Shown: piece after piece, positions 1,741 through 28,389 of the stretch
Layout of the letters: every line of letters begins with the position of its first letter
How positions within the stretch are numbered: the first letter of the stretch is position 1
Assembly: GCA_963740355.1 (NCBI GenBank)
Contig: CAVUDW010000002.1
Span: 1,664,001-1,728,000 of the forward strand
Direction: 5' to 3'
Source: an uncultured Gemmatimonadaceae bacterium
Lineage (GTDB): Bacteria; Gemmatimonadota; Gemmatimonadetes; Gemmatimonadales; Gemmatimonadaceae
DNA length: 64,000 nt
Program-made: the position numbers and the translations under genes
Notes under the pieces: generated by a model
What the model was told of the DNA's origin: nothing
Database searches by the model: none
Seen by the model: only the letters and a program-made list of their open reading frames with translations

Positions 1741-1870
1741 GCGAAATCCGGTGACAGTGCACTCAATTCAAGAATTGAGTGCACTGTCACCGGATTTCGC
1801 TCGCACGTCACCGGATTTCCCGGATTTCACCCATTGAGTGCACTGTCACCGGATTTCTGTCGCCGGATTT
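1741..1870. repeat. Palindrome family A, copy 1, plus partial units
   Basis: Perfect 29-bp arms 1741-1769 / 1772-1800 (gcgaaatccggtgacagtgcactcaattc-aa-gaattgagtgcactgtcaccggatttcgc), then partial right-arm units out to 1870. Confidence 0.95.
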
Positions 1871-2286
1871 CACGGGTATCGCTCGCGCAGGTGCTCGATC
1901 GAGTCCTTCACGAGCGCGTCCAGTGCAGGTAGGTCGATATCCTCGAGCCGCTTGATGTGGATGCATCCCTTGCCCGCCTTGTACTTGCCGAGCTTGGCCA
2001 GCAGGGCGTCGTGGCGCGCAGAGCCCGGGGCGATGTAGAGCGTGATGCGATCCTTCCGCGGCGCAAAGGCGACCAGCATCCACTCCTCGGTGGTGCCATT
2101 GGCATACGTTCGGTTGTAGGTGCCACATCCGACGATCGTCGTGCCCCACATGCGTGCTGGCGCTTTCGTCGCCGCCTCGAAACGCTTCACGATCGCGTAG
2201 CAGTCCTGCCTACGTTGCTCATCCTCGATCGCGTCGAGGAATGTTTTGACGCTGGCGGTCGTCTCTCGGGTCTTGGGTCCGGCCAT
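1870..2286 (-). CDS. DUF1801/YdhG-like protein
   Basis: SVKTFLDAIEDEQRRQD...MWGTTIVG...FAPRKDRITLY...LGKYKAGKGCIHIKRLEDID. Confidence 0.85.
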   Translation of the reverse strand: MAGPKTRETTASVKTFLDAIEDEQRRQDCYAIVKRFEAATKAPARMWGTTIVGCGTYNRTYANGTTEEWMLVAFAPRKDRITLYIAPGSARHDALLAKLGKYKAGKGCIHIKRLEDIDLPALDALVKDSIEHLRERYP

Positions 2287-2365
2287 TCGTTCAACCTCGA
2301 GGGTCAACGGTCATGGATCGCACAGGTGAATGAAGCCGTCGCAACTCTCGCCCACATCAAGCTCA

Positions 2366-5153
2366 TCACCGTTTCACCTTCGCCCGCACTTCGTCGAAGA
2401 AGTTCTGCACCACCACCAGCGTCGGTGTCCCCGCCATCTCCAACCAGCTGTTGTCTCGCACCATCAGAAACCGCTGATCGTCCGGCGAGAGTGCAAAGGT
2501 GCCGCTGGCCAGCGCTCCCGCGCGAACGAACTCTGGTATCGCGAACAAGACGCGCGGCGGTTCCGCCGAGAAGGGCGGTCCCGGATTGATCCTCACGACG
2601 TACATCTTCCCGTTGGCCACGTAGAAGAGCTCGCGCCCGTTGTGCGCCCAGATCGGTGGACTGCCACCGCCGCTCGACAGCTGCCACTTGCCTGCGCTCA
2701 CATCTGGAAACGGACGCACGAATACCTCATGCGCGCCCTGCTCGTTCGACACGTATGCGAGCCAACGCCCATCCGGTGACAGTGCCGCGCCCCTTTCGTC
2801 GTAACCTGTCGCCACGAGGGTGCGCGCGACGCTGTCAACGTTCGGTTGGGCGGCGAGAATCTCGCCGTGTACGGAACCACTGATCGACTTGTTCGCCCCC
2901 AGCAGCACCCAGCGCCCATCCGGACTCACGATCGCGTCCGTCGGACTCCCTCGGCCCCACAGGAGCCTGGCCTCACCGGTTCCGTCGGCCGCCTGCTCCC
3001 ACACGGTGAAGCCTGGAGTGGGCGGTCGAGTCGCTCTGGGCCGACACGAGTCGGTCCGACAGAAACGTGATGGCTTTGCCGTCGGGCGTCCACGCCGGCG
3101 ATCGGTCTTCACCGGGGTTCAGCGTGAGCCTCGACACCGGGCCTTTCGGTAGCTGCTTGATCCAAATGTCTCGGCCAAGCTCGGTGAGCAGCGTGAGCGC
3201 GATGCGCCGTCCGTCCGGCGACAGCGCGATTCCCCAGTCGATCTCGAAATCCCCGCTGTATCCGCCTCCGGTATTCACCTGCCACGAGGAATCCACCGGC
3301 TCGACCTGCCCAGTACGACTCACCCACACGACAGCAGCGTTCGGCGCCGGGCCCGGCACGAATTCCTGGCGTCCCACCAGGTAATACGCGGTGCCGTCAT
3401 TCGAGATCAGGAATCCCGGCGCCTGAATCCCATCCAGCACGGGGACTGGCCGACCAGTAGCAGAAAGAGTCGAATTGTCCCACGGCGCCGCCATGAGCGT
3501 GCCACCGCTGGTGAGGTACAACACATGTCCGGTCGGGATGTACCAGGCTCCGATGGCATCCTCGAATAACGCGCGAACGGTATCCCGACGCGCATCGTAC
3601 ACGTACACTCGACTGGGACGACAGCTGACCGGCCCCACGCACTGGGTGAGATGGGCCGTGAACAGGACACCACGTGAGTCAGGGAGCGGCGTTGGTATCC
3701 ATGGGAAGCGGCCCTCCAGCGCGGTGCGCGAGACGATCACCTTCGATTTCGCCTCTCCGGACCCGAGACGACGCAGCGTGCGAGATGTCGCGTCGTAGTA
3801 GACAATGGAACCGTCCTCCAGCCACGCGCCCCGGTTGTACACCGCGTTGACGGAATCCTCGAGCTTGAGGGACGTTCCGCCCGTGCTCGGAATTCTGCGC
3901 AGTTGGTTATTTGCGACGAATCCGATCGACGCTCCGTCGGGAGAGAAGAAGGGGCCCGATCCACCTTCCGTGCCGGCCAGCGGCCGTGCAACGACTTCAT
4001 CACGTCGCTTGATGTACAGCTGGCCGGGACCGGTCAGCGGACTGCGGAACACCAGTGACATTCCATCGGGTGAGAGCGCGGCTTCGACCCCGAACGTGAG
4101 CCCATCGAGTACGCCTTGCGCGCCAAGCGTCGTGACGTTGCGCGAGACGGACGTCGCTGCCTGACGCGGGCGCATCCACCCCCACGTCGCGAGAGCGATC
4201 GCCAGCAAGGTGACTGCTGTCAGCGCCGGAAGGGCCATGCGACTTGAGGCCATCCCTGTAGCGGCGACGGTCTTGCCAGCGGCGACGCGCCCGGTGAACG
4301 ACGGATTGCGAAGCGCCTCGGCGAACGCCTTTGCGCTGTCGAAACGGTCGGCCTGGAGTTTCTCCAATGAGGTCGCGACCGCCGCCGCGACGTGTGGCGG
4401 CACCGCCTTGCGCAACTCCCTGACTGGTCGCGCGACGTCCACCACGATCTTCATGATGATCATCTGCGCCGACGAGCCGGTGTGTGGCGGTTCTCCTGTC
4501 AGTAGTTCGTACAGGACTGAGCCAAGCGAGTAGATGTCCGAGCGGTTGGTGATGTGCTTCTCAGCCGTCGCCTGCTCGGGGGACATGTAGTGCGGCGTGC
4601 CCACCGACACACCGGTCTCCGTCATTCGACCGCCTGCCGCCGCGCTCACTGCCAGCGCGATGCCGAAGTCCGCGACGATTGCACGACCGTTGCTGAGGAG
4701 GATGTTTTCCGGTTTGATGTCCCGGTGCACGACGCCTTGCTCGTGTGCGTACTGCAACGCGTCCGCGACCTCGGTGGCGATGGTCACCGCCTCGTCGATG
4801 CCGAGCTGTTGCTCGCGATCGAGTTTCTCCCGAAGGTTTTCGCCTTGGATGAACGGCATGACATAGTACAAGAACCCCGGGCTGCCGCCGCCCGGCGAAA
4901 TCGTGCTGCCGCTGTCGTAGAGCGGCAGGATGTGCGGGTGCTGGAGCTGTGCGGTGGTCCTGATCTCCTGCACGAACCGGTCAGCGCCGAGCACGGCGGC
5001 GAGTTCGGGTCGCAGCACCTTCAGCGCGACCTTGCGGCCATGCTTCAGATCCTCGGCCAGGTAGACGGTCGCCATGCCACCCTCGCCGAGTTGACGCTCG
5101 ATGCGGTAGCGGTCGGCGAGGGCAGTGGCGAGGTGCGCGGTGATTTCAGCCAT
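2366..5153 (-). pseudogene. Hanks-type Ser/Thr kinase with TM and TolB/PD40 beta-propeller; frameshifted near 3010-3050
   Basis: GEGGMATVY, VALK, HRDIKPEN, DFG, GTPHYMSPE; SPDG repeats continue from ORF 2973..5153 into the different-frame ORF 2366..3112. Confidence 0.85.
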
Positions 5154-5273
5154 GCGCGTCGCGAGGCAGCGCGAAACGTGGCATTGTGTCGTGGGCCGGT
5201 CCGACCTGTCGATAAACGAGCAATGCCATGCGAAGCGATTGGGGTGGAGGATTCCAGCGTTGCGGCCCGACGC

Positions 5274-5732
5274 TCAGACGGCGGGTCTCGCCTCGCACAA
5301 CAGCTTGAGCCGCTGCAACGCCTTGGGCCAGGCCTGACTGATGTCCGCCTCCCACTCCTCGGTGACATCCTGGTCGACCGTCACGCGCGTGCCTTCGGTC
5401 GAGGCGATGAATGTGTAGTTCTCGTACGCCGGCGCCCAGGCGCGGATTGCATCGCTCTGGGTGTCTTCAACGCCATTGATGATGAATCCAATGTGGCGAA
5501 TCGATGTGAATTCGTTGAGCCGATGTTCCGCGACTTCAGCGACCATGCCATCACCAGACGGTCCCACGAATTTGATCTTCTCACCACGCTGCCACGATCC
5601 ATCGTACCGCGAGCCTTCGGCGAAGGCCGAGGCCCATTCCTGGTAGGACTCCGGATCGAGCATCGTCTGAAATACCACCGAGACGGGGGCCGTGATCTCC
5701 GTGGTGAATCGAACTCGTCTGTTCGTCGACAT
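5274..5732 (-). CDS. SRPBCC domain protein
   Basis: EITAPVSVVFQTMLDPESYQEW...GSWQRGEKIKF...WPKALQRLKLLCE; RBS gaggtg before ATG 5732. Confidence 0.85.
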   Translation of the reverse strand: MSTNRRVRFTTEITAPVSVVFQTMLDPESYQEWASAFAEGSRYDGSWQRGEKIKFVGPSGDGMVAEVAEHRLNEFTSIRHIGFIINGVEDTQSDAIRAWAPAYENYTFIASTEGTRVTVDQDVTEEWEADISQAWPKALQRLKLLCEARPAV

Positions 5733-5889
5733 CTGCACCTCGTCTGGGCTTGATTCGTCGCCTGAAGCGAACCGTTTTCGCTGCGCGGTCACCGCCAATG
5801 TCGGCGATCCTCACGATACGCCGCTGGCAGAGTCAGCGACAGGCCGCGGGCCGCTCCCAACGCGCTGGTGGACGCGCCCTTTGTGGCCG

Positions 5890-7200
5890 TCACCTCGCCG
5901 GCACCGCAGTGCTTGCGGTACCGAAGTGCAGCACGAGGTGCGAATGCTCACCGAGGAAGAGTCGCGAATCCTGTCCTGTCCATGCGCTCGTGCCACGCAT
6001 CGACGGATCCCCGAGCGCTTGCACGTACCACGCAGGCTTCGGTCCGTTCGGGAGCGCGTCGAGCCGGATGGGCGTTGCGGGCGCGGGCTTCGGTGCTGCC
6101 ATCGCCGGCACGAAGGTGAGATAGTTTCCATCCGCGTCGAATGCGCGCGCACCGGACACCTTGTTGAGCAGGAGCATGAAGGCGCCCACGTGCGTGTTCC
6201 ATGAGAGTGATGGCCCCCAGTACCCGCCGCCATCTTCGCGCAGCCACGATTTCGCCGGTGGCAACAGCGGTGTGGCCTGGCCCAGTGGTGTCGTCGCCCA
6301 CATCTGGCCGACGCGCGGGCCAGGCGTGCCCTGAAGTCCGGGGGCCGACCAGGCGCCGTTGTGCCAGCGATGTGCCTTGCTCGTGCCGTCGGGCGCGAGT
6401 GGGTGATCGAGGTCGGCTAGTGCGATGCGCGCCAGCTGGATGCCCTGGGTGCTCGCATCATCGCCGGTGTAGTCGGTGAAGGCGATGTAGGCATAGGTGC
6501 TGTCTGGGCCCACCGCCATGCTCGGGTCACCAACGCCGCCGGTGAAGAAGCGCGCCGGCTGGTCGCAGCTGATTGCAAAGCTGCCGTCACTGACGATGAT
6601 GGCGAGGTTTTCCCAGGTGCGCCCGTTGTCGGTGGAGCGTCCGAGCCCGATGTGCGGCACCGATAGATATGGCCGGTCATTCGGAGGCGGACAGTGCACG
6701 TACGGCCCTTCCTCCAGATGATAGAGCCCGTAGAGAATGCCGGTGCGCGGCGCGCGATAGACCCCTTCCATCCAGCGCATGCGTGTGGTGGTCGGTCCAT
6801 CGGCGCTGTTGATGTCGTGCACATACCACTTCTTCTTCGCATCCCAGGCGAACTTCGGGTCGTCATCGGTGAAGCGCATCGGCTCGAAGGGCTGTGCCGA
6901 ACCGGCATCACGCCCGCCGACGCTGCGCCACGGATGCTGGTTCGAGACCATCTGGAAGAGCGTGTCGCCGACCCACCATGACGGACGGTTGCAGTCGCTG
7001 CCGACGGGGCTCGTCACGCGCACGGTGTCCACGGTGACGAGGGTGACGGTCGGCACGGTGAAGGGTGTGGCGGTGGCGGTCGCGGTGGAATCGGTGACTA
7101 CAGGGCGTGTGTCGCGGGCGCAGGCCGTGAGCAGCGCCAGCGCGAGGGTCAGGCGGCGCGGTGCAATCAGTCGTGGCGTGCGGGGATGCGTCTGGAGCAT
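5890..7200 (-). CDS. Predicted lipoprotein with an Asp-box; possible beta-propeller/glycosidase-like fold
   Basis: Lipobox LTAC; Asp-box RSTDNGRTW; GDPS motif. Confidence 0.7.
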   Translation of the reverse strand: MLQTHPRTPRLIAPRRLTLALALLTACARDTRPVVTDSTATATATPFTVPTVTLVTVDTVRVTSPVGSDCNRPSWWVGDTLFQMVSNQHPWRSVGGRDAGSAQPFEPMRFTDDDPKFAWDAKKKWYVHDINSADGPTTTRMRWMEGVYRAPRTGILYGLYHLEEGPYVHCPPPNDRPYLSVPHIGLGRSTDNGRTWENLAIIVSDGSFAISCDQPARFFTGGVGDPSMAVGPDSTYAYIAFTDYTGDDASTQGIQLARIALADLDHPLAPDGTSKAHRWHNGAWSAPGLQGTPGPRVGQMWATTPLGQATPLLPPAKSWLREDGGGYWGPSLSWNTHVGAFMLLLNKVSGARAFDADGNYLTFVPAMAAPKPAPATPIRLDALPNGPKPAWYVQALGDPSMRGTSAWTGQDSRLFLGEHSHLVLHFGTASTAVPAR

Positions 7201-7274
7201 GATCGGCCCAAAGGGATGCGACGATGGGTGATGGAGCGACAGCCTGACGATATGTGCCGTGCCGCTCGCCGGTC

Positions 7275-7430
7275 AATCCGGTGACAGTGCACACATTCGG
7301 AGAAATCCGGTGACAGCAGGAATCCGGTGACGAGTAATCCGGTGACAGTGCACTCAATTCCAACGAATTGAGTGCACTGTCACCGGATTACTCCGGATTA
7401 CTCAGTCACTGATTTCTCGTCACCGGATTT
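7275..7430. repeat. Palindrome family A, copy 2, with partial units on both sides
   Basis: 29-bp arms 7332-7360 / 7365-7393, loop caac; three extra aatccggtgac units to the left and ccggatt-type units to the right. Confidence 0.95.
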
Positions 7431-7431
7431 C

Positions 7432-8145
7432 TCAGTCGCCACGCGGCCGCTTCGGCGACAGGATTCGCACCTCGGCGCGATGGATCAGGACCTCGGGTGG
7501 CGTGTTCACGACACTCATCACCGCCGCCGCCACGTCGTCGGCGCGCAGCTGCGACGTCGCGCGCGGGCCACCGCCGCCGCCGAACTCCGTGGCCACCGAG
7601 CCCGGGCTCACCACCGACACTTTCACGCCGGCGTCGCGTACCTCGAGCATCAGGTTCTCGGCGAAACCCATCACCGCATGCTTGGTCGTCGCGTAGCCGG
7701 CGCCTCCCACGAACGCGCTCCGCCCCGCGATCGACCCGATGATCACGATGTGGCCCTGGCCACGCGCGACCATGGCAGGCAGCACGGCACGCGTCACGTG
7801 ATAGAGCGCGTTGACGTTGACGTCCATCATCGTGTGCCACTCGTCGGGCGTGAGCTCGAGCAGCGGCTTCATCACGCCGACGCCGGCGTTGTGCACGAGG
7901 ACGTCCACGGTGCGCCCGTGCAAAGCGCTCGCGATTCGGTTCGCGATGCCCGGTGCGTCACTGAGGTCCAGCAGCAGTGACTCCGCTTCGCCGCCAGCTG
8001 CCTGCACCTCGGCGACAACGCTGGCGAGCGCTTCCTCATCACGCGCCGCTGCCAGCACGCGATGGGTCGCGGCGAAGCGGAGTGACAGGGCGCGACCGAT
8101 GCCACGCGAGGCACCGGTGATGAAAACGAGGGGCTTGGACGTCAT
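7432..8145 (-). CDS. Short-chain dehydrogenase/reductase
   Basis: TGASRGIG, HNAG, YATTK. Confidence 0.92.
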   Translation of the reverse strand: MTSKPLVFITGASRGIGRALSLRFAATHRVLAAARDEEALASVVAEVQAAGGEAESLLLDLSDAPGIANRIASALHGRTVDVLVHNAGVGVMKPLLELTPDEWHTMMDVNVNALYHVTRAVLPAMVARGQGHIVIIGSIAGRSAFVGGAGYATTKHAVMGFAENLMLEVRDAGVKVSVVSPGSVATEFGGGGGPRATSQLRADDVAAAVMSVVNTPPEVLIHRAEVRILSPKRPRGD

Positions 8146-8194
8146 GTCACCAGAATGCCGCATTGTGCGCACGCTGGCAACACGGTTGAGGTGC

Positions 8195-8244
8195 GATCAC
8201 GGGGACGGAGATCCTGAACCTTTCTGATCTCCGTCCCCATGATC
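8195..8244. repeat. Intergenic palindrome, family B (REP-like or terminator)
   Basis: gatcacggggacggagatc-12 nt-gatctccgtccccatgatc; 19-bp arms with 1 mismatch. Confidence 0.85.
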
Positions 8245-8256
8245 GGCGCTGACCGT

Positions 8257-9357
8257 TCACGGATACAGCGGCGTCTTCCCGAAGACGTTGAACGGCATCA
8301 GCGTGAAGCCGGTCCACATCACGTGCGTCATCTGCTTGTCCTCGTCACGGATGACGTGATGCAGTCCGCCGTAGTACCAGAGCACCACGTCCTGCTGGCG
8401 CACCGACTCCCCGTTGGTGTATGTCGGCAGTGCTGTCGCCGTGAACTCGTTCCAGCGGTAGCGCGTCACCCAGACGGTGTTCTTCGTGAACGCCTCCTGG
8501 TGCACTGGGATTCCCGTCACCTGCGGCATCAGGTGCCAGGCTGAGGGCTTCCCGTTGGTGTTGCGAAGCGTCGCATCGGTGATGTCCCAGCTTCTGAAGC
8601 CCGTCGCCGACCAGGGCATCCCACCCTCCGTCACGATCGGCGTGTGGCTGTCCACGCCTTGTGCACCAGACTCGGCGTGCGTCATCATCATCACCTGATC
8701 CGAGCCGGCACCGTTGAGATCCAGATCGAGTCGCCACAGCGGTCCATGCATGTGTGTCGTGGTGCCGGCCGGGATGCCTGTCGCGCCGACGCGGGCGGTC
8801 ATGATCCCGTCGTCGCGGAATGTCCACTCGATGATGTAGTTGTAGTTCGCTGCCGCGAGCACGCTGAACAACACCAGTTCCTCACCGCGCCGCTTTTGCC
8901 CGTCGTGCTTCCATGCGAGCCCGCGGTCGTGCACCTGCTTGCAGACTTGGCTAGCGCCGAGCACCACGCCGGTTGGGGCAGGGCAGTCAGTGCCGTCGAG
9001 TGGCACCCAGCCGAAGTTGTAGCCGACGTCCAGATAGCGCGGCGATCCGCCGTGGTACGGCACGAACAGCTCGGCGAGTCGCGCATCGTAGACAAGCTTG
9101 ATCCACGCGGCGTTCGGCGAGGGCCGGAACCACGCGCCGGAGATGATGAGTCCATTCCCGCGCACCACCTGCCAGCACAGCTTCCAGCGCGTCTCCTCAG
9201 TGCCCGAGGTAGGAAAGCGCTGTTCGATGTAGTACGGCTCCGAGCAGCTCTGCGCCTGCGCATGCAGCTCGGGCACAGGCGCCATCGACGCGAGTACGAA
9301 GCCGAGCGTGGTCATGGCGCCGCGCAGCAGTGCACGGGGAAAGAGGCGCTGTGTCAT
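8257..9357 (-). CDS. Secreted copper amine oxidase catalytic-domain protein (minimal)
   Basis: ELFVPY, YLD (catalytic Asp), NYNY (TPQ precursor site, consensus N-Y-D/E), WTFRDDG, HMH and HHVIRDED copper ligands, DVVLWY; signal peptide. Confidence 0.8.
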   Translation of the reverse strand: MTQRLFPRALLRGAMTTLGFVLASMAPVPELHAQAQSCSEPYYIEQRFPTSGTEETRWKLCWQVVRGNGLIISGAWFRPSPNAAWIKLVYDARLAELFVPYHGGSPRYLDVGYNFGWVPLDGTDCPAPTGVVLGASQVCKQVHDRGLAWKHDGQKRRGEELVLFSVLAAANYNYIIEWTFRDDGIMTARVGATGIPAGTTTHMHGPLWRLDLDLNGAGSDQVMMMTHAESGAQGVDSHTPIVTEGGMPWSATGFRSWDITDATLRNTNGKPSAWHLMPQVTGIPVHQEAFTKNTVWVTRYRWNEFTATALPTYTNGESVRQQDVVLWYYGGLHHVIRDEDKQMTHVMWTGFTLMPFNVFGKTPLYP

Positions 9358-10037
9358 CGCGCACCGTCCTTCACCATAACGGAGTCGTTCAGCAGGTCGA
9401 CCACCACTCGGCCGAGATGCACATAGGAGTTGTTGACGCGAAAGAAGAGCGCAACACATCGTCGATTCGCGCACCGATCGCCGGGTGGCCCCAGGAGCCG
9501 GATACCGTCGATGCGGGTGGCGGCGGTATCGGTCGGTTCGCCCGCCGCACGCTGGAGGCGGAACTCCGGCAGACGTCCATCGAACAGCTTGCGCACGCGT
9601 TCATCGGCGATCGCGATGCGCGCTGCACGCGCGACCTCTTCCTCGGACAGCGGCACATCGGCACCGCGGGCGCGAGTCACGTCGAGCACCTTGGCCGTCG
9701 CGAGATCCACCAGTGCCGTGACGCCTGTGTTGCGGGCGCGGACGAAATACTGGACGGCGGCCTGGCGAGAGACCTCGGCGTCGCCGTCGCGATTCTCGCG
9801 GCGTGGCTTGCCGGCGATGAAGCTGACGTCAACGAGCACCGGTGCGTCGCGACCGATCAGTTCGCGGAGCCGCGGGTCGGCGCGTGCGACGCTGTCGGCT
9901 AGAACGCGTTCGCGCGGGGTGAGCGGGTCGAGCGGTCGGGGTCGCTCGATGACAGGCTGCGCGGTGAGTGTCGCGGCGAGCAGCAGGGTCGCGATAGGGC
10001 TGGCGAGCCGAGGCAAGGTGGGGCGGGGAGTGATCAT
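9354..10037 (-). CDS. Secreted protein resembling copper amine oxidase N-terminal domains
   Basis: Signal peptide then PLDPLTPRE; ALVDL, PLSEEE, VVVDL; ATGA-coupled to the catalytic gene. Confidence 0.6.
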   Translation of the reverse strand: MITPRPTLPRLASPIATLLLAATLTAQPVIERPRPLDPLTPRERVLADSVARADPRLRELIGRDAPVLVDVSFIAGKPRRENRDGDAEVSRQAAVQYFVRARNTGVTALVDLATAKVLDVTRARGADVPLSEEEVARAARIAIADERVRKLFDGRLPEFRLQRAAGEPTDTAATRIDGIRLLGPPGDRCANRRCVALFFRVNNSYVHLGRVVVDLLNDSVMVKDGAR

Positions 10038-10137
10038 GCGGTGCCTCCTGGAGGGGGTGGCGTGCATATATCAGGACGCTGGAATCACCGGGGACTCTCA
10101 AGCCTGTTGTGATCGCGTCGTACGGCCGTTCCCGTAA

Positions 10138-10189
10138 TTCCGGTGACAGTGCACTCAATCATTGAAATGAGTGCACTGTCACCGGTTTT
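10138..10189. repeat. Palindrome family A, copy 3
   Basis: 18-bp arms 10140-10157 / 10168-10185, loop atcattgaaa; 51/52 identical to 11343-11394. Confidence 0.95.
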
Positions 10190-10340
10190 CCGCCGTGCCG
10201 CTCGCCAGACGTGGCGTGCGGTAGCACCGGCGCTGTTGCTTCGCACGCAGGCTTCCTCCGTTGCAACCATCCCGTCCCGGCATCGTATTCGGGAAGCATG
10301 CGGCACGCTTGAGAGTCCAACCAATCCCCCAGGCAGATTG

Positions 10341-11270
10341 ATGCGCAAGTTTCAGGTGGTCATGGCCACCGTTGGATTGATGGCCTGCTCGAGCGGTCTG
10401 CGCCCTCGCGCCGACGTCGCGAGTGCCTCTGCAGGTGCGGACGAACAGTCCGTCCCGCTTCTCGAAGTTGACCGCCGTCTCGGTGCTGCCGCCGCGACGA
10501 AACCGATGCTGGAAGGACTGGCCTCGATGCTCGCGCCCGATGCAATGTCGCCAGCTTCAGGCCTCGGACTCCTCGACGGGCGCGACACGATTCTCGCGAC
10601 ATTCGCTCGTGACACCCTCAACGCGACATCGCGGGTGCGATGGGTGCCCGTGCGCGCGGGCGTCTCGGCCGACGGCTCACATGGCGTCACCATCGGTCTG
10701 CTGACTGTCACACGAAGCACCGGGGTGACTCAGGAGTACAAGTATCTGGCGTACTGGGTTCGCGCGGCCGATGGATGGCGGGTACAGGTATGGCGTCGCA
10801 CGCCGCGCGCGGCTGGCGTCACCAGCGCGACCAGCGAAGCGCCGTGGCTTCCGTATTACGGTGGCTCGCCGCCCCGCATGCTCAGCGGTGCGGCACTTGA
10901 TAGCGCGCGCCGTCAGCTCATGGGCATGGAGACCCTCTTTTCCGATTCAGCAAAACGCATCGGCCTCGGGCCAGCCTTCCTTGCATTTGGTGCCGCCGAC
11001 GCGATGCACCTCGGCGGACCGCAGAGCCCGGACCTGATTCGTGGCAACGTGGCGATTGCGCGGTCGGTGCAGGGTGATGGGCCGGCGAGTGCGAGTCCCG
11101 TCACATGGAGCGCCGAGCGTGCGCTGATCGCGCCAAGCGGCGACCTCGGCGTGACACTTGGATACATCGTGCCGAATGGCGCCGGAACGGCAGGCAATCC
11201 ACCGCGACGCATCCCGTTCTTCACCGTATGGCGCCGCGACGCGGCGGGGTGGAAGTACATCGCCGAATGA
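10341..11270 (+). CDS. Lipoprotein with two NTF2/SnoaL-like (DUF4440-type) domains
   Basis: Lipobox LMAC; duplicated motifs VSADGSHGVTIG...YLAYWVR..DGWR and IAPSGDLGVTLG...FFTVWRR...GWK. Confidence 0.8.
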   Translation: MRKFQVVMATVGLMACSSGLRPRADVASASAGADEQSVPLLEVDRRLGAAAATKPMLEGLASMLAPDAMSPASGLGLLDGRDTILATFARDTLNATSRVRWVPVRAGVSADGSHGVTIGLLTVTRSTGVTQEYKYLAYWVRAADGWRVQVWRRTPRAAGVTSATSEAPWLPYYGGSPPRMLSGAALDSARRQLMGMETLFSDSAKRIGLGPAFLAFGAADAMHLGGPQSPDLIRGNVAIARSVQGDGPASASPVTWSAERALIAPSGDLGVTLGYIVPNGAGTAGNPPRRIPFFTVWRRDAAGWKYIAE

Positions 11271-11329
11271 GCGACGCGTGATCCGGGACACCGAATCGGA
11301 TGGCGACAGCGACTGAAAGTCCGCCGAAG

Positions 11330-11394
11330 TCGGTGACATTTTTTCCGGTGACAGTGCACTCAATCATCGAAATGAGTGCACTGTCACCGGTTTT
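11330..11394. repeat. Palindrome family A, copy 4
   Basis: 18-bp arms 11345-11362 / 11373-11390, loop atcatcgaaa; partial tcggtgaca at 11330. Confidence 0.95.
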
Positions 11395-11403
11395 GCCTAC
11401 CGC

Positions 11404-12030: not shown

Positions 12031-12077
12031 GATGCACTCCTCGAGAGATGGGGAAATGGACAACGTGGCGGCAGCGA

Positions 12078-14073: not shown

Positions 14074-14117
14074 GACGAATGCGGTGACAGACGAATGCGG
14101 TGACAGTGCACTCATTC
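14074..14117 (+). repeat. Palindrome family A half-site with a 16-bp tandem duplication
   Basis: gacgaatgcggtgaca-gacgaatgcggtgaca-gtgcactcattc; no right arm. Confidence 0.85.
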
Positions 14118-14401
14118 TTCAAGGCGGGGCATCCCTCGACCTCGTCAACCACCGTCGCGGTGAGGTGCGGGGCACAGCGGCACCATACGCAATCGGGCAA
14201 ACCGCGACAGCAGCAGGCCTGCGCAAAGCACGACTCCATGAAATCACCGCTTCTTGGCAAGCTGTGACATCGGATGTATAGATGATCAACGCCAGCGTGC
14301 CAAACTCAGGCTGCCTGGTGTCCTACCCACTCGTGTTCCTGCACGAGGGTACGGATGCGCGTCGAAGCTCCCCATTCGGCCAGGGATCGGGATCAGTCCC
14401 C

Positions 14402-17314: not shown

Positions 17315-18055
17315 CGTCACGACGACGGGCCCCTGCTTGGTCGCGACGACCGTGTGCTCGTACTGGACGCACCGCGCTGCCGGACGGGCGACCAGCGTCC
17401 AGCCGTCATCGCCGCGGTCCTCAGCGAACCGGCCGCCCAGCGACAGGAACGGCTCGACGGTCAGCACCAGACCGTCGGCGATGGTCCGGCGCTCTGAGCG
17501 GTCGGGCCAGGTGGGGATCTCGGCGGGCTCATCGTGGAGGCTGTCGCCGACCCCGTGGCTCGCAAGATTTTCGATCAGCGTATAGCGATGGCGACGGGCA
17601 AAGGCGCCGATCGCATCGCCGATGTCGGCGAGCTTGCCGCCCGATCGCACGGCACGGATGCCCTCCCACATCGCGCGCTTGCCGTCACGGCAGAGCGCTG
17701 CGAGCTGCGGCGCGGCCTCCGGCACCAGATAGGAGGCTCCGGTATCTGCGAAAATCCCGTCGAGCTCGGCCGAGACATCGATATTCACTAGATCTCCCGC
17801 CGCGATCACGCGCGCTCCTGGGATGCCGTGGGCGATCTCTTCGTTTACCGAAATGCAGGTTGCGCCCGGAAAGCCGTACGTGATCCGGGGCGCCGAACGG
17901 GCGCCATGCGCGTCGAGGAAGGCGTTGCCGATGGCGTCGAGCTCACCGGTGGTGATCCCCGGACGCAGCGCGTAGGCCATGGCATCTCGCGCCAAGGCAC
18001 AGACCCGGCCGACCGCCTTCAGGCGGTCGAGCTGATTTTCGCTGCTGATGGTCAT
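17309..18055 (-). CDS. map: Type I methionine aminopeptidase
   Basis: CISVNEEIAHGIP, DLVNIDVS, DG.FADT, HGVG..LHDEP, TVEP, QYEHT. Confidence 0.95.
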   Translation of the reverse strand: MTISSENQLDRLKAVGRVCALARDAMAYALRPGITTGELDAIGNAFLDAHGARSAPRITYGFPGATCISVNEEIAHGIPGARVIAAGDLVNIDVSAELDGIFADTGASYLVPEAAPQLAALCRDGKRAMWEGIRAVRSGGKLADIGDAIGAFARRHRYTLIENLASHGVGDSLHDEPAEIPTWPDRSERRTIADGLVLTVEPFLSLGGRFAEDRGDDGWTLVARPAARCVQYEHTVVATKQGPVVVTL

Positions 18056-18090
18056 TCGGGCATCCCGAGCACCTTGGATTCATGGCGCGG

Positions 18091-19125
18091 TCAGCGCCTC
18101 GTAGCGTCGGCGGGCTTCCCAGGCGGTGGGAACACAGGGCCTGCCGAGTCCTGCGGCGTAGGAACCGACAGGTCGATGCGATCGTGCAGGAAAACCAACT
18201 GATCGAAGTAATGCGCCGCCGTGAGGCGATGCCCGGACTCGTACCACCGAATCTGTGTGCCGCGCGGCGCGGCGGCGTGGAAGCTCCGCGCGACGTGCGG
18301 GAGGACCGCTTCGTCCTGCGTGTTGTTCTGCAGAAAGATCTTTTGCCCATCGGCGCGAGGGAAGTACGTCGTGCCGGAGACAGGCTCCATCGCCGCGACC
18401 CAGCGGTCGCGCTGAACGGCGGGAATGGAAGTGAGTGGTCCGACCAGCGCGCCCTGCGGATCCCGGAAATGCGCGACGAACCCGAGGTCTCCAACGGCGA
18501 GTACATACGCGGCCAGGCGCGGTTCGACGCCAGCGAGCACCGCACCCATCGCGCCGCCGTAACTGATCCCAACGTACGCCACACGCGCGGAGTCCACGTC
18601 CGGCCGGGCGCTGAGAATGTCCACAAGCCTGCGGAGATCCACGATCGTCTGCACCTGTTCGACGGAATCGCGCACCGTGAAGCTCAGCGGCTCGCGAAAA
18701 TTCCGGCGGGCAAACGCGGCATCGATGCCGATGACGATGGCGCCCTTCTTCGCGAAGAAATTCCCACGCGGTCCCAGATTGTCGCTATTGCCAGGCGCGC
18801 CGTGGCCAAAGAGAATGGCCGCGTATTTGCGCGCGGGGACCGATCCCGCGGGCCTGAACATCTTGCCGGTCACGCGACCACCGAGCGGGCTGGCGAAGCT
18901 GATGACGTACTCGTCAACGCCCTCCGAACTTCGCACGAGCGAATCCCGCCACTCAGCGGGTGTGCGCGCGTCGTAGGCGAACGGGGATGTGCTTGCGGGC
19001 GCTGGCGATACCGACTGCGCGTCGATGGGTGCGGGTAGGCTCAGCCAGAGCGCAGCGTGGAGAACCGATAGCGCTTTCGCGAGGAGGACTACGTTTGTGT
19101 CGCGGTATCCATCCTTGAGTCGCAT
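18091..19125 (-). CDS. Secreted alpha/beta hydrolase (esterase/dienelactone hydrolase-like)
   Basis: RPDVDSARVAYVGISYGG nucleophile elbow; DEAV; WYESGH. Confidence 0.85.
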   Translation of the reverse strand: MRLKDGYRDTNVVLLAKALSVLHAALWLSLPAPIDAQSVSPAPASTSPFAYDARTPAEWRDSLVRSSEGVDEYVISFASPLGGRVTGKMFRPAGSVPARKYAAILFGHGAPGNSDNLGPRGNFFAKKGAIVIGIDAAFARRNFREPLSFTVRDSVEQVQTIVDLRRLVDILSARPDVDSARVAYVGISYGGAMGAVLAGVEPRLAAYVLAVGDLGFVAHFRDPQGALVGPLTSIPAVQRDRWVAAMEPVSGTTYFPRADGQKIFLQNNTQDEAVLPHVARSFHAAAPRGTQIRWYESGHRLTAAHYFDQLVFLHDRIDLSVPTPQDSAGPVFPPPGKPADATRR

Positions 19126-19307
19126 GTCCTAATGCCTCTTTGGGTTGCTCGTGTGATGCGGCGTCCGCCAAAAAGGTTGCTCGACTTGGTGCGCTGGAAG
19201 CGGATCGACGGTCGCGTTGGTCAGGCTCTTCGTTGTAGCCTACGCCAACCTCGCGGGCAGTCCTGCTCCGCGGCACATCAACGCGACTCGCTTCTTCCGG
19301 ACAAAAA

Positions 19308-19724
19308 ATGACTGGTGACCTCCTCAGCAACTCCCTCACCGGGATCGTCGCGCACATGGTCCACCTCGGCATCGCGGCAGCAGCGGTTCTGGTGTTCGCG
19401 GCCATCTACCTCATGATGACACCGCATCGCGAAATCTCCCTGATCCGGCAGGGCAACTCTGCCGCCGCGATCTCACTCAGCGGGGCGATACTCGGCTACA
19501 CCATACCGCTGGCGAAGGCGGTGGCACAGAGTGAGAGTATCCAGGAGATGCTGCTCTGGAGCGGCGTGGCATTGGTGGCGCAACTCATCGCCTATGGCAT
19601 CGGTCGGCTGGTCCTCCCACAGTTGTCAGCGCACGTGAGCGAAGGGAAGACGGCGTCGGCCATTCTCCTCGCTGCCATCGCTGTCGCCGTCGGCCTGCTC
19701 AATTCGGCGGCGATGACCGCATAG
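19308..19724 (+). CDS. DUF350 (YjfL-like) membrane protein
   Basis: IY..MTPHREISLIRQGNSAAAISLSGAILG...GLLNSAAMT. Confidence 0.9.
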   Translation: MTGDLLSNSLTGIVAHMVHLGIAAAAVLVFAAIYLMMTPHREISLIRQGNSAAAISLSGAILGYTIPLAKAVAQSESIQEMLLWSGVALVAQLIAYGIGRLVLPQLSAHVSEGKTASAILLAAIAVAVGLLNSAAMTA

Positions 19725-19782
19725 TCGGACGCGTCGTGTCGTGAGCGCGCCGCTCCGGCACCCGGCCTGACCTGCATTACCA

Positions 19783-19842
19783 ACGTCAGTTACGTCAACA
19801 ACATCAGCTACATCAGTACATCACAGACCAGCTACATCAACA
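19783..19842. repeat. Degenerate ~9-nt tandem repeat (ACRTCA core), 7 units
   Basis: acgtcagtt acgtcaaca acatcagct acatcagt acatcacag accagct acatcaaca. Confidence 0.75.
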
Positions 19843-21743
19843 ATTCGTTCACCGCCCGGCGTGCCTCGTCGATCGCAGCATCGGTGTACGAATACGCCGC
19901 CGCGTCGGCATTCGCGATCGCAATCCGCCCCAGTGGCTGGCGCGCGGCCACACACGGCTGCTCGCCGCCCGCGAGCCAGAACGGGTCGGCGAGGGAGTTG
20001 TACTGGTATGCGTATCCATGCGGCCACCGATTGACGGTGATACCGAGGATGTCCGCCGCTGGATCGAATCCGCCCGCGCCGAACATCCGGCCGAGCTGGT
20101 CGCGAATGCTACGCTCGATCGTCTCGAACGGTGTCGCAAGCAACTCCGCGCGGCCGACTGTGTGTTGCATCGGCCCCGGCAACCCAGGCTTGCATGCCGA
20201 CCGATTCATATGGAGCACCACCGGTTCGGTGGGCGACTTGCTGTGGACGTAGTCACCGATGCTGACTGGGGTATCGAGGCTAGTCGAGGAGTGCCACAGG
20301 CCGGGACTCGAGACACTGCTCACCTTCAGAGCCTGCATCGCGGTCCACTGACGCACGAAGACGTTGGTGTACACCAGCGGAACCTTCTTCGCATACCTGA
20401 GCGCCGCACGTTGCGGCTCGGCGAGATCAGGGCAGATGTGCGGAATGACATGATGCCAGCAGGCCAGCACGACGCGGCTGGCACTCGCGCGTTGCAGTCG
20501 TCCGTCGCGCATGTAGAGCACATCGACCGCGGTGGCGCCGTCGATCGGACCGTCGTGCGCGACCCTGCACGACGGTCGAATCAAGTCGCACCCGGGTGCG
20601 GGACGACGTGACGTCAAGCCTGCCATAGTCGATGCGCGCCGACACGACGTCATCGGCCGTCGATCCCGGAACAGCATCCGGAATCAGTCGCCGCATCAGC
20701 AGCCTCGCGATGGTCGCATTGCCATCGGGGAAGTGAAAGAAGTACGCATCCGCCTCGGCGCTGCGCATCGAGTCGTAGTTCTGGCCAACACCGTCGACAT
20801 CATCGAGCTTCATGCCCTGGAAGCCGGGCAGGCCGAGTCCAAATGCATCCTGCGCGGGTACGGCGTCGACGCCGAAGCCGAACAGCGTATGCGTCCGGGT
20901 CTGGTAGATGCCCAGGACGTGTGGGTCGAGTCCCCAGACCGTCGTGACGAAGTCGGTGTAACTCATTCGCGCGAGGCGACCCTTCTTCTCTGCCGAACTC
21001 AGTTCAGGCCATGGATCGCGCTGCTCGGTGTTGAGCAGCATGATCTGCGCCTGGATCTCCGCCGGCAGGGGAGTTCGGGCGAGGAACTCGGCATTCGCGG
21101 CGCGCGCGGATCCTGTCACGAGGCGATCGTCGCCGAAGGTCTCACGGTCGAAGAACGTCGCAGGTCCGAGTCCGAGCGACGAGTAGCGATCGCGATCGAG
21201 TACCGATGCATATCGTGACACGTCGATGCCCAGCTCTGTGATCAGCGCCTTGGCCTCGGGCGAATACGGTCGGGGGCTTTCGATCGACTGGGTGCCGCCA
21301 TATCCGATCCAGGTGCGATTGTCGTGCGTGAACTCGTTTCGCTTGGCGTGCCCGCCGAAGTCGTCGTGGTTGTCGAGCACCAGGATGCGCGACTCGGCAC
21401 CAGCCTGCTGCCTGAAGTAGTGCGCGGCCGCCAGCCCGCTGATGCCAGCGCCGACCACGATCAGGTCGTAGTGCTCACGGGTGTCGAGGGCTCGGCCGAG
21501 CGATAGGGCGCCATCGCGCAACTGGTGCGCCGCCTCGAACGAACCGGCATGATCACCGCGCAGGCCGGTGAGTGCGGGCGGGTACAGCTCACCCACATAC
21601 GCGGCTGAGTTGAGCCGCTGCGCGCCAGCCTCGCGAGAGTTGAGCAGCGAGCCGACGCCGAGGCCGACCGCGACGGTGCCGACGAAGTCCCGCCGGCTGA
21701 TGTTGCGGAACATGCCAAGCTCGCGATCGCGTGAAGCGGACAT
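19832..21743 (-). pseudogene. Tat-exported FAD oxidoreductase, spermidine dehydrogenase (SpdH)-like; frameshift near 20563-20567
   Basis: SRRDFV Tat motif, VVGAGISG, DNHDDFGGHAKRNEF, FPDGN; continues in another frame with VLACW, ITVNRWPHGYAY. Confidence 0.85.
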
Positions 21744-21800
21744 GGGGCGAAGCGTAGCGGAGCGCGCACGGGGCAGGGAGTGGCATGACCACCGCGGGCC

Positions 21801-21935
21801 AATCCGGTGACAGTGCACTCATTCGCGAGAATTGAGTGCACTGTCACCGGATTTCGCGCGGCGCGATCAGGGGTCTCGAGCCGCAGGCTGAATGCGCGCA
21901 GGCACTGGACCGAGCACCTGCCCGTACGAGCCCGG
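21801..21935. repeat. Palindrome family A, copy 5, plus a degenerate copy of the 3' end of gene 23255-24751
   Basis: 21-bp arms 21801-21821 / 21833-21853; 21805-21874 identical to 23193-23262 (70 bp), similarity continues to 21935 / 23323. Confidence 0.95.
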
Positions 21936-22095
21936 GTGCTCAATCTCAGAAACACGCCACTAGCCATCCGCGTCGACGTCCAACAGCTTCACGGCACTCG
22001 AATCGCACGCGACAGCGGGGCATGTTCGCGGGAATCGATGCCCTGGACTTCACAGTCGGCTCTGGGGCCACTCGATTCGGACTCCCGAGGCTCGC

Positions 22096-22452
22096 GTGAC
22101 GAACACGGACCATGGCGTTGATGCGGCTGTCGTCGACCGGACGAGCAGTCTGCTCACTCGGCTGGGCTTTTTGTACCTGTCGAGTGTCGCCGCACTCGTC
22201 ACCCTCGCCTACGAAGCCTTCGTCACATTGGCGAGCATGATGCCTGGCAGGCCGGCTCCGCTCTGGCAATACCTGCTTGGCTACGGCGTCGGACTGATCG
22301 GCGTGCTGATCTCATGGTTCGCTGGCAAGGCGTATCTCCGATCCTGCCGCGGAGCCAACATGCCACCCGCTCGCTTCGCAGTGCGGTGGCTGGGAGGCCC
22401 GCTCGCGCTGGTGGCATTCACAGGATTGGCGTTCGTCGTCCTGCGCTCCTGA
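22096..22452 (+). CDS. Small membrane protein, ~3 TM, unknown function
   Basis: GTG start, three hydrophobic segments. Confidence 0.65.
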   Translation: MTNTDHGVDAAVVDRTSSLLTRLGFLYLSSVAALVTLAYEAFVTLASMMPGRPAPLWQYLLGYGVGLIGVLISWFAGKAYLRSCRGANMPPARFAVRWLGGPLALVAFTGLAFVVLRS

Positions 22453-22560
22453 TCGCTGCGCCGCTGCAATTCGCAGCCGGCACACCATTGCGCAGCCAAG
22501 TGCTGTGCGCGAGATCACCACACGGTGCCGCAACCATGGCATCGGCAACCCACCCGACCC

Positions 22561-23088
22561 ATGCGTTCTCGCCTGCTCATCCCGTCGTTCGTCATGATCA
22601 TCACCGCGAGTGCTGCGACAGCGGCGGGCGCGCAGACCGTTCCAGCGGGATGGCGTGCAATGCTGCGCTCGAGTCCTGAGGAGGAAAGCGTGTACCTCGA
22701 CGTCCAGAGTCCGCTCTCGGCTCTGCTGACGGTGCGGGAATCGGGCAGGACGACCATCGACGCGCCGACGCTGGGTGAGTGGCTGACGCGAATCACGCAG
22801 GCCGACCCGGCGCCGGGTGGCGGGCGCTGGAGCGAACCGGGGTCGGTCACGTCGAGAGACGCGAACACAGCGATTCTCGTCCGTACCTTCTCCTGGCGCG
22901 CCGGTAACGGCGTGGTGCAGTATGGCGCGACGAGCCGCGACGGCAAGCAGGGCCGCGTGATACGGCTCGTGTTCGGCACACGGGCAGCGGTCGACGGACC
23001 ACGCGGCGTGTTGGCACGCAACCTGTTCGGCGAGTTGATGCAGGCCGAGTTGAACGCCGGGGCTGCTGCGCCGGCTCCCAAGAAGTAG
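22561..23088 (+). CDS. Secreted hypothetical protein
   Basis: Signal peptide ending AGA-QTVPAGW. Confidence 0.65.
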   Translation: MRSRLLIPSFVMIITASAATAAGAQTVPAGWRAMLRSSPEEESVYLDVQSPLSALLTVRESGRTTIDAPTLGEWLTRITQADPAPGGGRWSEPGSVTSRDANTAILVRTFSWRAGNGVVQYGATSRDGKQGRVIRLVFGTRAAVDGPRGVLARNLFGELMQAELNAGAAAPAPKK

Positions 23089-23104
23089 TGCTTCGTCGCG
23101 TCGC

Positions 23105-23240
23105 ATTCCGGTGACAGTGCACTGATTGCGCGCCGCTACGAATACTGTTCGGGGCAAATCGGTGACGGGGCAAATCGGTGACAGGGGCAAATCGGTGACA
23201 GTGCACTCATTCGCGAGAATTGAGTGCACTGTCACCGGAT
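23105..23240. repeat. Family A half-site, triple tandem end duplication and palindrome copy 6
   Basis: attccggtgacagtgcact at 23105; ggggcaaatcggtgac(a) x3 at 23151-23200; arms 23193-23209 / 23221-23237. Confidence 0.95.
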
Positions 23241-23254
23241 TTCGCGCGGCGCGA

Positions 23255-24751
23255 TCAGGGGTTCTCGAGCCGCAGGCTGAACGCGCGAAGGTCTGGACCG
23301 AGCACCTGGCCACACGAGCCCGGATGGTCCGGCTCCCACTCGACTGTCGCCGTCTCGCTCGGCGTGCCGTTCTCCAGCCGAGCGACTCGCAGCGCGGTAC
23401 GCACGCCACCGCGCACACGTGTGGCGCGCGCAGTGTAGACGCCGTGGGGGATGTCGGTGAGCCGACTGTTCCATCCCGCGCTGTTGTAGCGCACGGTGCG
23501 CGTGATCACTTCGCCCGCGCTGCCGTCGACGAGTGGTCCCTGAGGCACGAGCGCGACTTCCACGTCGTCACCGTTCTCCAGCACGGGGTTGTAGAAGTCC
23601 GACGACGCCACCAGCACCAGCGTCGCGCCGAAGTAGTTGTTCCCGGCGTCGGGGATGCGGCCAGTGAGCTTCCAGCGGAAGTCGCGCACCACGCCGGGGC
23701 CGGGCACGAACGCGTCGTAGTCGCCAGTGTTCGGCATGCCAAGTCGCACGCAGTAGGATCGTCCCGCGTATTCGACTTCGTGCCACGCCTGGACCAGGTG
23801 CGACAGCCCGGCGGGCAATCCGCGAACGGCGTAGCGACCATCGGCACCGGTGCGCGTGCGCACCACGTTCGGGTTCCAGACCATCTTGACCTGCACCATC
23901 ACGTTCGCGAGCGGCTGTCCTCGCGAGTCGAGTGCGACGCCGGTGAGGTCGTCTGGCGTGGGCGTGGGCGTGGGTGTTGGCGGCGGCGCAGCGGCGACGC
24001 GGACCACGACGACGGTGCTCACTGGCGCGAGCCCATCGGCGACACCGGTCAGCGTGATCGCGTAGTCGCCTGCGCCGACCGAGGCTGCGGCCTGAACGCC
24101 GATCGTTGCGGCCGGCCCGGCGATCGGCCCGTTCGCCAGCATAATGGTCATTCCCGCCGGCGCGCCCGCTGCACCGAACGTGACGTTGCCGGTGAAGTCG
24201 GTGCGTGCAATGGCGATGGTGGCGAATGTCGTGGCGCCGCCTGCGACAACTGCCAGTGGCGACGGCGTGACTGCGAGTGTGAAGCGCCCGACGGGCGGTG
24301 CGGGTGCGGGCGTGACGCGCAACACGATCGTAGCGTTCGCGTTGGCGCCGCCTCCAGCACCGGTGATGGTCACGGCGTGGTCACCTGTCGGCGTTGTGGG
24401 TGTGGTGACGAGAGTGACGACGCTCGCGCTGAGGTCCGACGGCAGCGTTGCAGGTTCGAGCGTCGTGGCGATACCAGTCGCACCGCCAGCGGCGAGTGAT
24501 ACGGCGGCGTTGTGCCCGCCTCTGGCGACAGTGACGGTCGTGACAGCGGTCTGGCCTTGTTCGACTGTCACGATCGCGGGTGCGGCCGTGATTGCGAGGG
24601 TGGGCGCGGGCGGTGGGGGATTGCTCGGCGCGGCCGGGCTGTCTGCGCCGCCGCCGCAGGCGGAGAGCAATGCGGTGATGGCAGCGGCGAGCAGGGTGTA
24701 CCGTGCGCGCCGGGAGCGAGGCGCGCTTGGGGGGAGACGAGTGGAGGACAT
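23255..24751 (-). CDS. Surface lipoprotein: two Ig-like repeats, PT linker, carboxypeptidase-regulatory-like domain
   Basis: Lipobox LSAC-GGG; repeated GDHAVTITG / GDYAITLTG; LTGVALDSRGQPLANV...TRTGADGRY. Confidence 0.8.
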   Translation of the reverse strand: MSSTRLPPSAPRSRRARYTLLAAAITALLSACGGGADSPAAPSNPPPPAPTLAITAAPAIVTVEQGQTAVTTVTVARGGHNAAVSLAAGGATGIATTLEPATLPSDLSASVVTLVTTPTTPTGDHAVTITGAGGGANANATIVLRVTPAPAPPVGRFTLAVTPSPLAVVAGGATTFATIAIARTDFTGNVTFGAAGAPAGMTIMLANGPIAGPAATIGVQAAASVGAGDYAITLTGVADGLAPVSTVVVVRVAAAPPPTPTPTPTPDDLTGVALDSRGQPLANVMVQVKMVWNPNVVRTRTGADGRYAVRGLPAGLSHLVQAWHEVEYAGRSYCVRLGMPNTGDYDAFVPGPGVVRDFRWKLTGRIPDAGNNYFGATLVLVASSDFYNPVLENGDDVEVALVPQGPLVDGSAGEVITRTVRYNSAGWNSRLTDIPHGVYTARATRVRGGVRTALRVARLENGTPSETATVEWEPDHPGSCGQVLGPDLRAFSLRLENP

Positions 24752-25943: not shown

Positions 25944-25980
25944 TGACGACCCCGACGTGACACCGTGTCACCGCCGTACC

Positions 25981-28380: not shown

Positions 28381-28389
28381 GCCATGTGT

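Follow-up and report, generated by a model that had tools for sequence, protein, structure and literature searches.

In this study, we analyzed a stretch of 64,000 nucleotides (64 kb; the window) from an uncultured Gemmatimonadaceae bacterium (GenBank assembly GCA_963740355.1, contig CAVUDW010000002.1, positions 1,664,001 to 1,728,000), and examined a family of hairpin-forming palindromes located between the genes of its left part. A preliminary description of this DNA had listed six full hairpins and several half-sites, and had proposed that they delimit gene cassettes. The G+C (GC) content of the window is about 65%. The genes of the left part are unrelated and lie on both strands; they encode SRPBCC, DUF1801, SDR, copper amine oxidase-like, DUF4440, and GGDEF proteins, a Ser/Thr kinase with PD40 repeats, a TPR hybrid histidine kinase, and an M24 peptidase. 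The genes of the right part include those for SMC, the ribosomal proteins L9, S18, S6, and L25, RsfS, and YchF. A tRNA search of the window found none.

Palindromes between the genes of the window

Each element is built of two inverted copies of an arm, which is about 25-29 nt long with the core GGTGACAGTGCACT, and a short loop that separates them. The 15-mer CGGTGACAGTGCACT, with up to two mismatches allowed, matched the window 16 times, always between positions 1749 and 23237, as compared with a mean of 0.32 and a maximum of 2 matches in shuffled sequences. Twelve of these matches form six inverted pairs of a left (L) and a right (R) arm, at the places where the six hairpins had been described; the other four are lone arms. 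The family is confined to positions 1741-23245, and the remaining 40 kb of the window has no match. In our own gene model, the seven sites of the family all fall in gaps between predicted genes, and they occupy 7 of the 15 intergenic gaps to the left of 24 kb versus none of the 14 gaps to the right (Fisher p = 0.006). Within the window, the hairpins are truly clustered, and the preliminary description was right in placing the sites in intergenic DNA.

Folded as single-stranded DNA (ssDNA), all six hairpins gave stems of 18-29 bp with loops of 4-10 nt and energies of -23.5 to -35.8 kcal/mol. The z-scores ranged from -9.3 to -16.8, and none of 200 shuffled sequences folded equally well. The palindromes are perfect or nearly so, with a single bulged base in the hairpin designated C1. 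Four of the six hairpins have a stop codon no more than about 40 nt away, and such very stable stems might be taken as immobile host regulatory sites under selection, i.e., bidirectional terminators, stabilizers of mRNA ends, or binding sites of a host protein; side roles of these kinds are reported for repetitive extragenic palindromic (REP) sequences in parts of PMC3733652 and PMC3479197. However, the terminator scan classed none of the hairpins as an intrinsic terminator (the T runs are just 3-4 long), the Rfam scan of the window gave no match, and the genes on either side of hairpin B1, and of the lone arm at 14098, start in divergent directions. Mobility is also shown by the association with a transposase gene at 16 loci and by the gain of a hairpin in a related contig, both described below. 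We regard a purely regulatory origin as extremely improbable.

The hairpins fall into three adjacent sister pairs (A, B, and C), as had been described. The identity of the inner arm and loop is 0.88, 0.93, and 1.0 within the pairs, as compared with 0.75 and 0.73 between neighbors that are not sisters. By simple counting by hand, the chance that three types form three adjacent pairs is 6 in 90 (0.067). Pairs A, B, and C enclose 5.5, 1.15, and 1.3 kb of genes, respectively.

Hairpin A1 (1741-1800, arms at 1749 and 1778; 28-bp stem, 4-nt loop, -35.7 kcal/mol, z = -15.5) starts 26 nt past the stop codon of the SRPBCC (AHSA1) gene at 1161-1715 (+). Its sister A2 (7332-7393, arms at 7340 and 7371; 29-bp stem, 4-nt loop, -35.8 kcal/mol, z = -16.8) has as neighbors the stop of the SDR gene at 7432-8172 (-) and the start of the ORF (open reading frame) at 5890-7200 (-). 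The two have the inner arm in common; their loops differ, and so do their outer ends, which are each self-complementary. Several hairpins in the window, these two among them, adjoin ladders of shortened copies of the outer arm, each copy (rung) with a few bases of local flank. The ladder on the A1 side (1801-1870) consists of partial right-arm copies, and its long rung at 1829-1857 (lone arm at 1837, -) had been described as a half-site at 1834. The ladder upstream of A2 (7275-7331) has three rungs, partial copies of the left arm that extend over 14, 9, and 7 nt as counted from CGGTG, and the outermost rung (lone arm at 7279, +, one mismatch) had been described as a half-site at 7275; the partial right-arm copies downstream of A2 (7394-7440) were read straight from the sequence. 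We also considered the insertion of cargo into the center of a hairpin, and rejected it since the lone arms face the wrong way, in the order R ... L around 1837-7279.

Hairpins B1 (10140-10185, arms at 10141 and 10170; 18-bp stem, 10-nt loop ATCATTGAAA, -23.5 kcal/mol, z = -9.8) and B2 (11345-11390, arms at 11346 and 11375; 18-bp stem, loop ATCATCGAAA) are alike over the element of about 55 nt only, and differ by one base of the loop. The left arm at 14078-14116 (match at 14098, +) is preceded by one partial copy in tandem and has no right-arm partner; the GGDEF (-) and TPR hybrid kinase (+) genes diverge from the gap in which it lies. The other three half-sites (1837, 7279, and 23109) each belong to a ladder beside a full hairpin, of which they are the longest rung, and are not independent sites.

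Hairpins C1 (21801-21853, arms at 21805 and 21835; -27.7 kcal/mol, z = -11.1) and C2 (23187-23245, arms at 23193 and 23223; -25.3 kcal/mol, z = -9.9) have the same loop and inner arm. C2 lies about 18 nt past the stop of the gene at 23255-24751 (-), and is preceded by a ladder at 23105-23192 (+), in which a lone left arm (23109-23123) comes before two rungs that repeat a 16-17-nt unit exactly and in tandem (23151-23192); this is the clearest ladder. Pair C had been described as alike in the palindrome; the pairing stands, and the likeness is more extensive. The two sites have 148 nt in common, namely, the hairpin and about 95 nt to its right, with no likeness on the left. The original of this flank is at C2 (23246-23333, +), where the resident gene 23255-24751 (-) has its 3' end. 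The flank at C1 (21854-21945, +) copies the 3' end and downstream spacer of this gene, and is apparently a gene fragment. A site-specific event at the palindrome would leave the end of a neighboring gene uncopied; duplication, repair from a nearby copy, or read-through copying would account for pair C. There is precedent in the REPIN clusters, which also repeat flanking sequence (Bertels and Rainey 2011, PMC3116915, in part).

The preliminary description had explained the pairs by an integron-like cassette array, in which genes are captured at the palindrome, the event duplicates the palindrome, and the enzyme acts in trans. Whole genes are indeed enclosed by three adjacent sister pairs, and every site lies in the left part, for which no synteny was seen. 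When the left 29 kb was compared with the loci retrieved from other genomes (see below) by blastn, and by tblastn with 32 window ORFs, the matches were only scattered paralogs (kinase domains and one DUF350 gene). However, there was no match to recombinase or integrase families among the 58 window ORFs scanned, and the sites have no attC-type features; the absence of GTT/AAC boxes, already noted in the preliminary description, was confirmed by reading the sites. The hairpin intervals contain one to six genes on both strands, coding for up to 1010 aa. The GC content of the five inter-hairpin intervals equals that of the flanks (all within ±0.016), and no interval has a second copy within the window. 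The interval between pair C (1.24 kb) contains two ORFs without a family match. Neither this flat composition nor the repeated 95 nt of a resident gene's end is expected from capture of cargo.

As a separate observation, the amine oxidase-like gene at 19832-21490 (-) appears to be split across two overlapping frames, with the C-terminal Amino_oxidase part in 19835-20677 and the NAD_binding_8 part in 20430-21818. A frameshift or a pseudogene is possible.

The same arms beside a Y1 transposase in other genomes

We scanned public genomes for the exact 17-nt core of the arm and retrieved the matches with 10-kb flanks. The scan gave at least 125 stretches, corresponding to 123 loci, of which 116 were non-redundant. 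Among the matches listed, 17 of the 123 loci carry labels beginning with Gemmatimonad, the rest are mostly from Alphaproteobacteria, and about 12 appear to be chance matches inside unrelated sequence. With 16 arm matches and seven intergenic sites in the window in addition to these stretches, the family is present in many extragenic palindromic copies, as REP sequences are.

In 16 of the 116 non-redundant loci, again among the matches listed, tblastn located a Y1 transposase gene between an L arm and an R arm. Two of the 16 (L046 and L094) are from Gemmatimonadaceae. The order is simply L arm, gene, R arm at five loci (L006, L071, L023, L025, and L026), and the remaining loci have clusters. 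In several loci, the reading frame downstream of the motif opens with MARLARVV.PG.PHHVTQRGN. The L arm ends at a constant distance of 35-36 nt before the start codon in Alphaproteobacteria (L006, L071, L023, L025, L115, and L121), and the distance is longer, about 105 nt, in L046 and L094; the R arm is found at the stop codon or up to about 31 nt past it. The L arm may double as part of the promoter or operator of the transposase gene.

The proteins are 218-233 aa long, as compared with 165 aa for the Escherichia coli chain, and match Pfam Y1_Tnp with E-values of 1e-8 to 2e-9. The HUH motif (H60-V-H62) and Tyr119 are invariant in seven sequences. The best match in the PDB, both by sequence and by fold, is 4ER8, the E. 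coli TnpA-REP with a REP hairpin (E = 4.6e-8 and TM = 0.73 for the predicted model), and the ISDra2 and IS608 transposases are the next-best structure matches. Residues 141-204 are conserved and predicted to be helical, with five helices in the model. The L046 and L094 enzymes are 63-69% identical to those of Alphaproteobacteria. The clade is very large, with at least 7852 cluster representatives at an E-value of 1e-20 or better, which are annotated simply as "transposase". The preliminary description had postulated an enzyme acting in trans and had used REP/REPIN palindromes with their Y1 HUH transposases as a comparator. Both proposals are supported by these loci, in which the same arms bracket such a gene.

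Proposed local copying, ladders, and the DNA between sister elements

A Gemmatimonadales contig (L031) is syntenic with positions 29222-41989 of the window at 74-84% identity. It has a single hairpin, which lies between its MBL-fold and SMC genes in a gap where the window has a different inverted repeat. The L031 hairpin was thus gained singly, between conserved genes and without cargo. The preliminary description itself had named palindromes gained singly, among genes in an unchanged order, as a result that would refute cassettes. Another Gemmatimonadaceae genome (VAR_17) carries elements of 226-300 nt with the same ends, one per gap; the genes around them are large, ordinary, and encoded on either strand. 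The four elements of one contig are 77-83% alike, and only 59-65% identical to those of another contig of this genome. Adjacent sisters are also common in the other retrieved loci: 8 of 23 neighbor pairs exceed an identity of 0.72 (the 95th percentile of 400 between-locus controls), with gaps of 60 nt to 5.5 kb between sister neighbors and with flanks that are mostly unrelated. The adjacent look-alikes, the single gains, and the contig-local families can be explained by local copying. In line with such copying, the two arms of an element co-vary at variable positions on either side of the core boundary: 56 of 81 are complementary at position -2 versus 25.7 with shuffled partners, and 62 versus 40.5 at position +3.

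Two further arrangements were observed in the retrieved loci. The CAZABH01 genome (L043, L047, and L053; also L090) has ten elements in which the arms are a constant 61-65 nt apart, start to start; the central 35 nt or so show no sequence similarity between elements, and every element forms a perfectly complementary inner stem of its own. In Bradyrhizobium sp. LjRoot220 (L036, positions 8832-10017), four motif copies follow one another on the same strand every 375-396 nt or so, forming a tandem array of the element plus flank.

Two observations were made in the window itself around the region of synteny. The stretch at 25000-29200 has a lower GC content (0.59-0.63) and carries an Mrr_cat restriction endonuclease gene (27376-28476) and no hairpin; it looks like an acquired islet, and the synteny with L031 begins just to the right of it, at 29222. 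The window also contains a second, unrelated inverted repeat, the 19-mer CACGGAGCTCACGGAGTGC, which occurs four times, versus 0.06 expected, as two inverted pairs (31927-32051 and 59494-59595) with copies 106 and 83 nt apart. Both pairs are intergenic and in the core part, and one occupies the gap in which L031 has the GGTGACAG hairpin. The 16-nt pattern CACGGAGNNCACGGAG, derived from this repeat, had no match in the 123 retrieved loci.

The ladders are found throughout the family. We counted as a rung any partial prefix copy of at least 5 nt within 90 nt outside an arm, and found at least one in 65 of 171 unique motif instances from the window and the retrieved loci. The total was 90 rungs; about 14 would be expected by chance, and the two control counts were 32 (inner side) and 27 (reverse strand). 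Of the 90 rungs, 49 have at least 4 nt of left flank in common with the main copy, and are therefore tandem duplications. The ladders may have arisen by stalling of a polymerase at the hairpin foot followed by replication slippage. Alternatively, the HUH enzyme might nick the DNA, allow a short extension from the 3' OH, and reseal it, in which case the start of a rung would be the cleavage site; the ladders could be scars of this activity. A nested "excision footprint" was considered and rejected, the rungs of A1 and C2 being one-sided.

The clearest case of GC-poor DNA between sisters is an alphaproteobacterial locus (L022), in which an islet of 1,107 nt (10021-11127) with a GC content of 0.559, lying between radical SAM and Hsp20 genes, is abutted on both sides by sister elements, whereas the GC content just outside is 0.72-0.74. 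The ORF of the islet, which may be broken, has a weak match to HNH_5 (E = 1e-4, below the cut-off). The GC content also drops between sisters at L007 (SUKH-1 genes; -0.074) and L048 (-0.069). For gaps longer than 500 nt in other genomes, the mean difference is -0.062 between sisters (n = 5) and -0.003 between non-sisters (n = 14), a contrast that is not significant (Mann-Whitney p = 0.11). This islet and this trend toward lower GC inside could be cited for the cassette array. Against it stand, in addition to the features of the window, the hairpin gained without cargo in L031, the VAR_17 elements between ordinary genes, and the lack of significance of the trend itself. The "peel and paste" Y1 enzymes (IS200/IS605) are not known to duplicate their target. 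We therefore consider capture of cargo in an integron-like array very unlikely.

The same islet bears on another explanation, in which two hairpins in direct order are the ends of a composite IS200/IS605-like unit, or stretches of homology through which a circle integrates by the Campbell mechanism, and some pairs of the window mark such events. The transposase gene itself lies between an L and an R arm, so the DNA between the arms would be the unit moved, and among the retrieved elements, the shortest spacer is 2 nt and the longest is about 270 nt plus a whole gene. The L022 islet is exactly bounded by sisters. In pair C, a 148-nt direct repeat encloses 1.24 kb, which is the arrangement that a single crossover with a circle would leave. 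However, no interval is repeated and no compositional signal is present within the window; L022 is the sole clear case among the five sister pairs with gaps longer than 500 nt, and its elements could have inserted at the edges of an older islet. Such islets keep this explanation alive for the family without demonstrating it in the window; overall, we find it unlikely. A broader version, in which hairpin pairs are ends of a Y1-moved unit or landing pads of circles, the family occasionally carries or admits genes, the L022 islet is one such event, pairs B and C are older ones, and, as a separate matter, the ladders are scars of nicking, extension, and resealing, appears unlikely.

We conclude that the palindromes of the window are probably non-autonomous elements of the REP or terminal inverted repeat (TIR) type, served by a Y1 HUH enzyme encoded elsewhere, and that the intervening genes are resident rather than cargo. 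The enzyme would be a relative of the REP-associated tyrosine transposases (RAYTs), of the type called TIRYT or TnpA-REP subclass 2.1 (see below), encoded elsewhere in the genome. It would recognize the hairpin, or the paired arms, folded in ssDNA and nick the strand at the hairpin foot, and the element would then be copied or moved over short distances into nearby intergenic DNA. Clusters and adjacent look-alikes could result from such short-range copying or from repair between neighboring copies, which may once have carried 95 nt of flank.

Several points weigh against this conclusion. No Y1 transposase gene of the window was found by ORF scans or tblastn, in agreement with the preliminary description, and we assume that the source genome encodes the enzyme. 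The enzymes of the other loci score 72.8-78.1 bits against NCBIfam NF047646 (REP-associated tyrosine transposase), just under the cut-off of 80, and no helix-turn-helix (HTH) family (Bac_DnaA_C, HTH_23, HTH_28) was matched in Pfam at E-values up to 5 in a search with the whole protein. Unlike in REP/REPIN systems, there is no GTAG/CGTC at either end, and the arms start with (A)ATCC, ATTC, or TTAC followed by GGTGAC. The strong clustering in the left part of the window is unlike an evenly spread REP family. Copying of whole elements does not explain the constant spacer length with unrelated content at L043, L047, and L053, and the sisters that bound GC-poor DNA (L022, L007, and L048) fit carried or admitted cargo better than plain hopping. 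Finally, the covariation between arms is overstated, as the control pools genomes.

If the conclusion holds, Gemmatimonadota now have a defined REP-like repeat family with a likely enzyme named. RAYT systems are usually described as vertically inherited. The 17-nt core is the same letter for letter in Gemmatimonadota and many Alphaproteobacteria, beside similar transposases, and this identity across phyla points to horizontal spread of the enzyme-plus-repeat pair. The ladders could show the cut site of the enzyme, and the bounded GC-poor islet could show whether the family ever moves genes. In annotation, the sites should be masked as repeats and not treated as cassette boundaries.

Comparison with known systems

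Integron attC arrays resemble the present family in having imperfectly to perfectly palindromic sites between genes, which act as folded single strands, and an enzyme encoded outside the cassettes. In contrast, the present family has no IntI, attI, or Pc and no GTT/AAC core or extrahelical bases, its stems are perfect or nearly so, its genes are not co-oriented single ORFs, and the linked enzyme is an HUH transposase rather than a tyrosine recombinase.

The IS200/IS605 family has in common with it the Y1 HUH chemistry and hairpins as the recognized ends, in line with the structural match to the ISDra2 and IS608 TnpA proteins. The alphaproteobacterial arms begin with TTAC, the tetranucleotide at which IS608 is targeted and cleaved. 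PATEs are non-autonomous derivatives of IS200/IS605. In contrast to these elements, the ends of the present elements are mutual inverted repeats, tnpB is absent, and the elements are mostly 50-90 nt long and non-coding.

In the REP/REPIN-RAYT systems, as here, short extragenic palindromes flank the gene of a Y1 HUH transposase, which serves them in trans. The association of REPs with RAYTs was reportedly described by Nunvar in 2010. A hairpin-forming doublet is the functional unit, singlets resemble decayed remnants, and clusters may repeat their flanks. The present family differs in that a single arm is not itself a hairpin, the spacer length varies between 2 nt and more than 200 nt, and the enzyme is a near miss for the NCBIfam RAYT model. 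RAYTs have been sorted into groups (Bertels et al. 2017, PMC5581495, in part).

The nearest published counterparts of the present family are RAYT-like genes with TIRs instead of GTAG REPs. They have been named TIRtrons or TIRYTs in the part of Di Nocera et al. (2013, PMC3733652) that describes them, and correspond to TnpA-REP subclass 2.1, with long proteins and an HTH-like C-terminal extension, in a part of Quentin et al. (2018, PMC6006769). In our literature search, the name TIRYT was found solely in these two papers. The present family differs from TIRYTs in that its dispersed copies are tight, near-perfect hairpins, many with ladders of truncated arms. For the C-terminal part, Pfam gave no HTH match, and the model has five helices. 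Its core, identical in Alphaproteobacteria and Gemmatimonadota, sets it apart from the description in the text portion of PMC3733652. The resemblances are as follows: the Y1 gene is bracketed by TIRs and lacks GTAG REPs, and the protein exceeds E. coli TnpA-REP in length and has a C-terminal extension. The arm GGTGACAG fits seven of the eight positions of the TIR consensus GGGGWSAS as quoted in PMC3733652 (T for G at position 3), and its copies are dispersed as singles, self-complementary dimers, and clusters, the same three forms in which TIR copies are described there.

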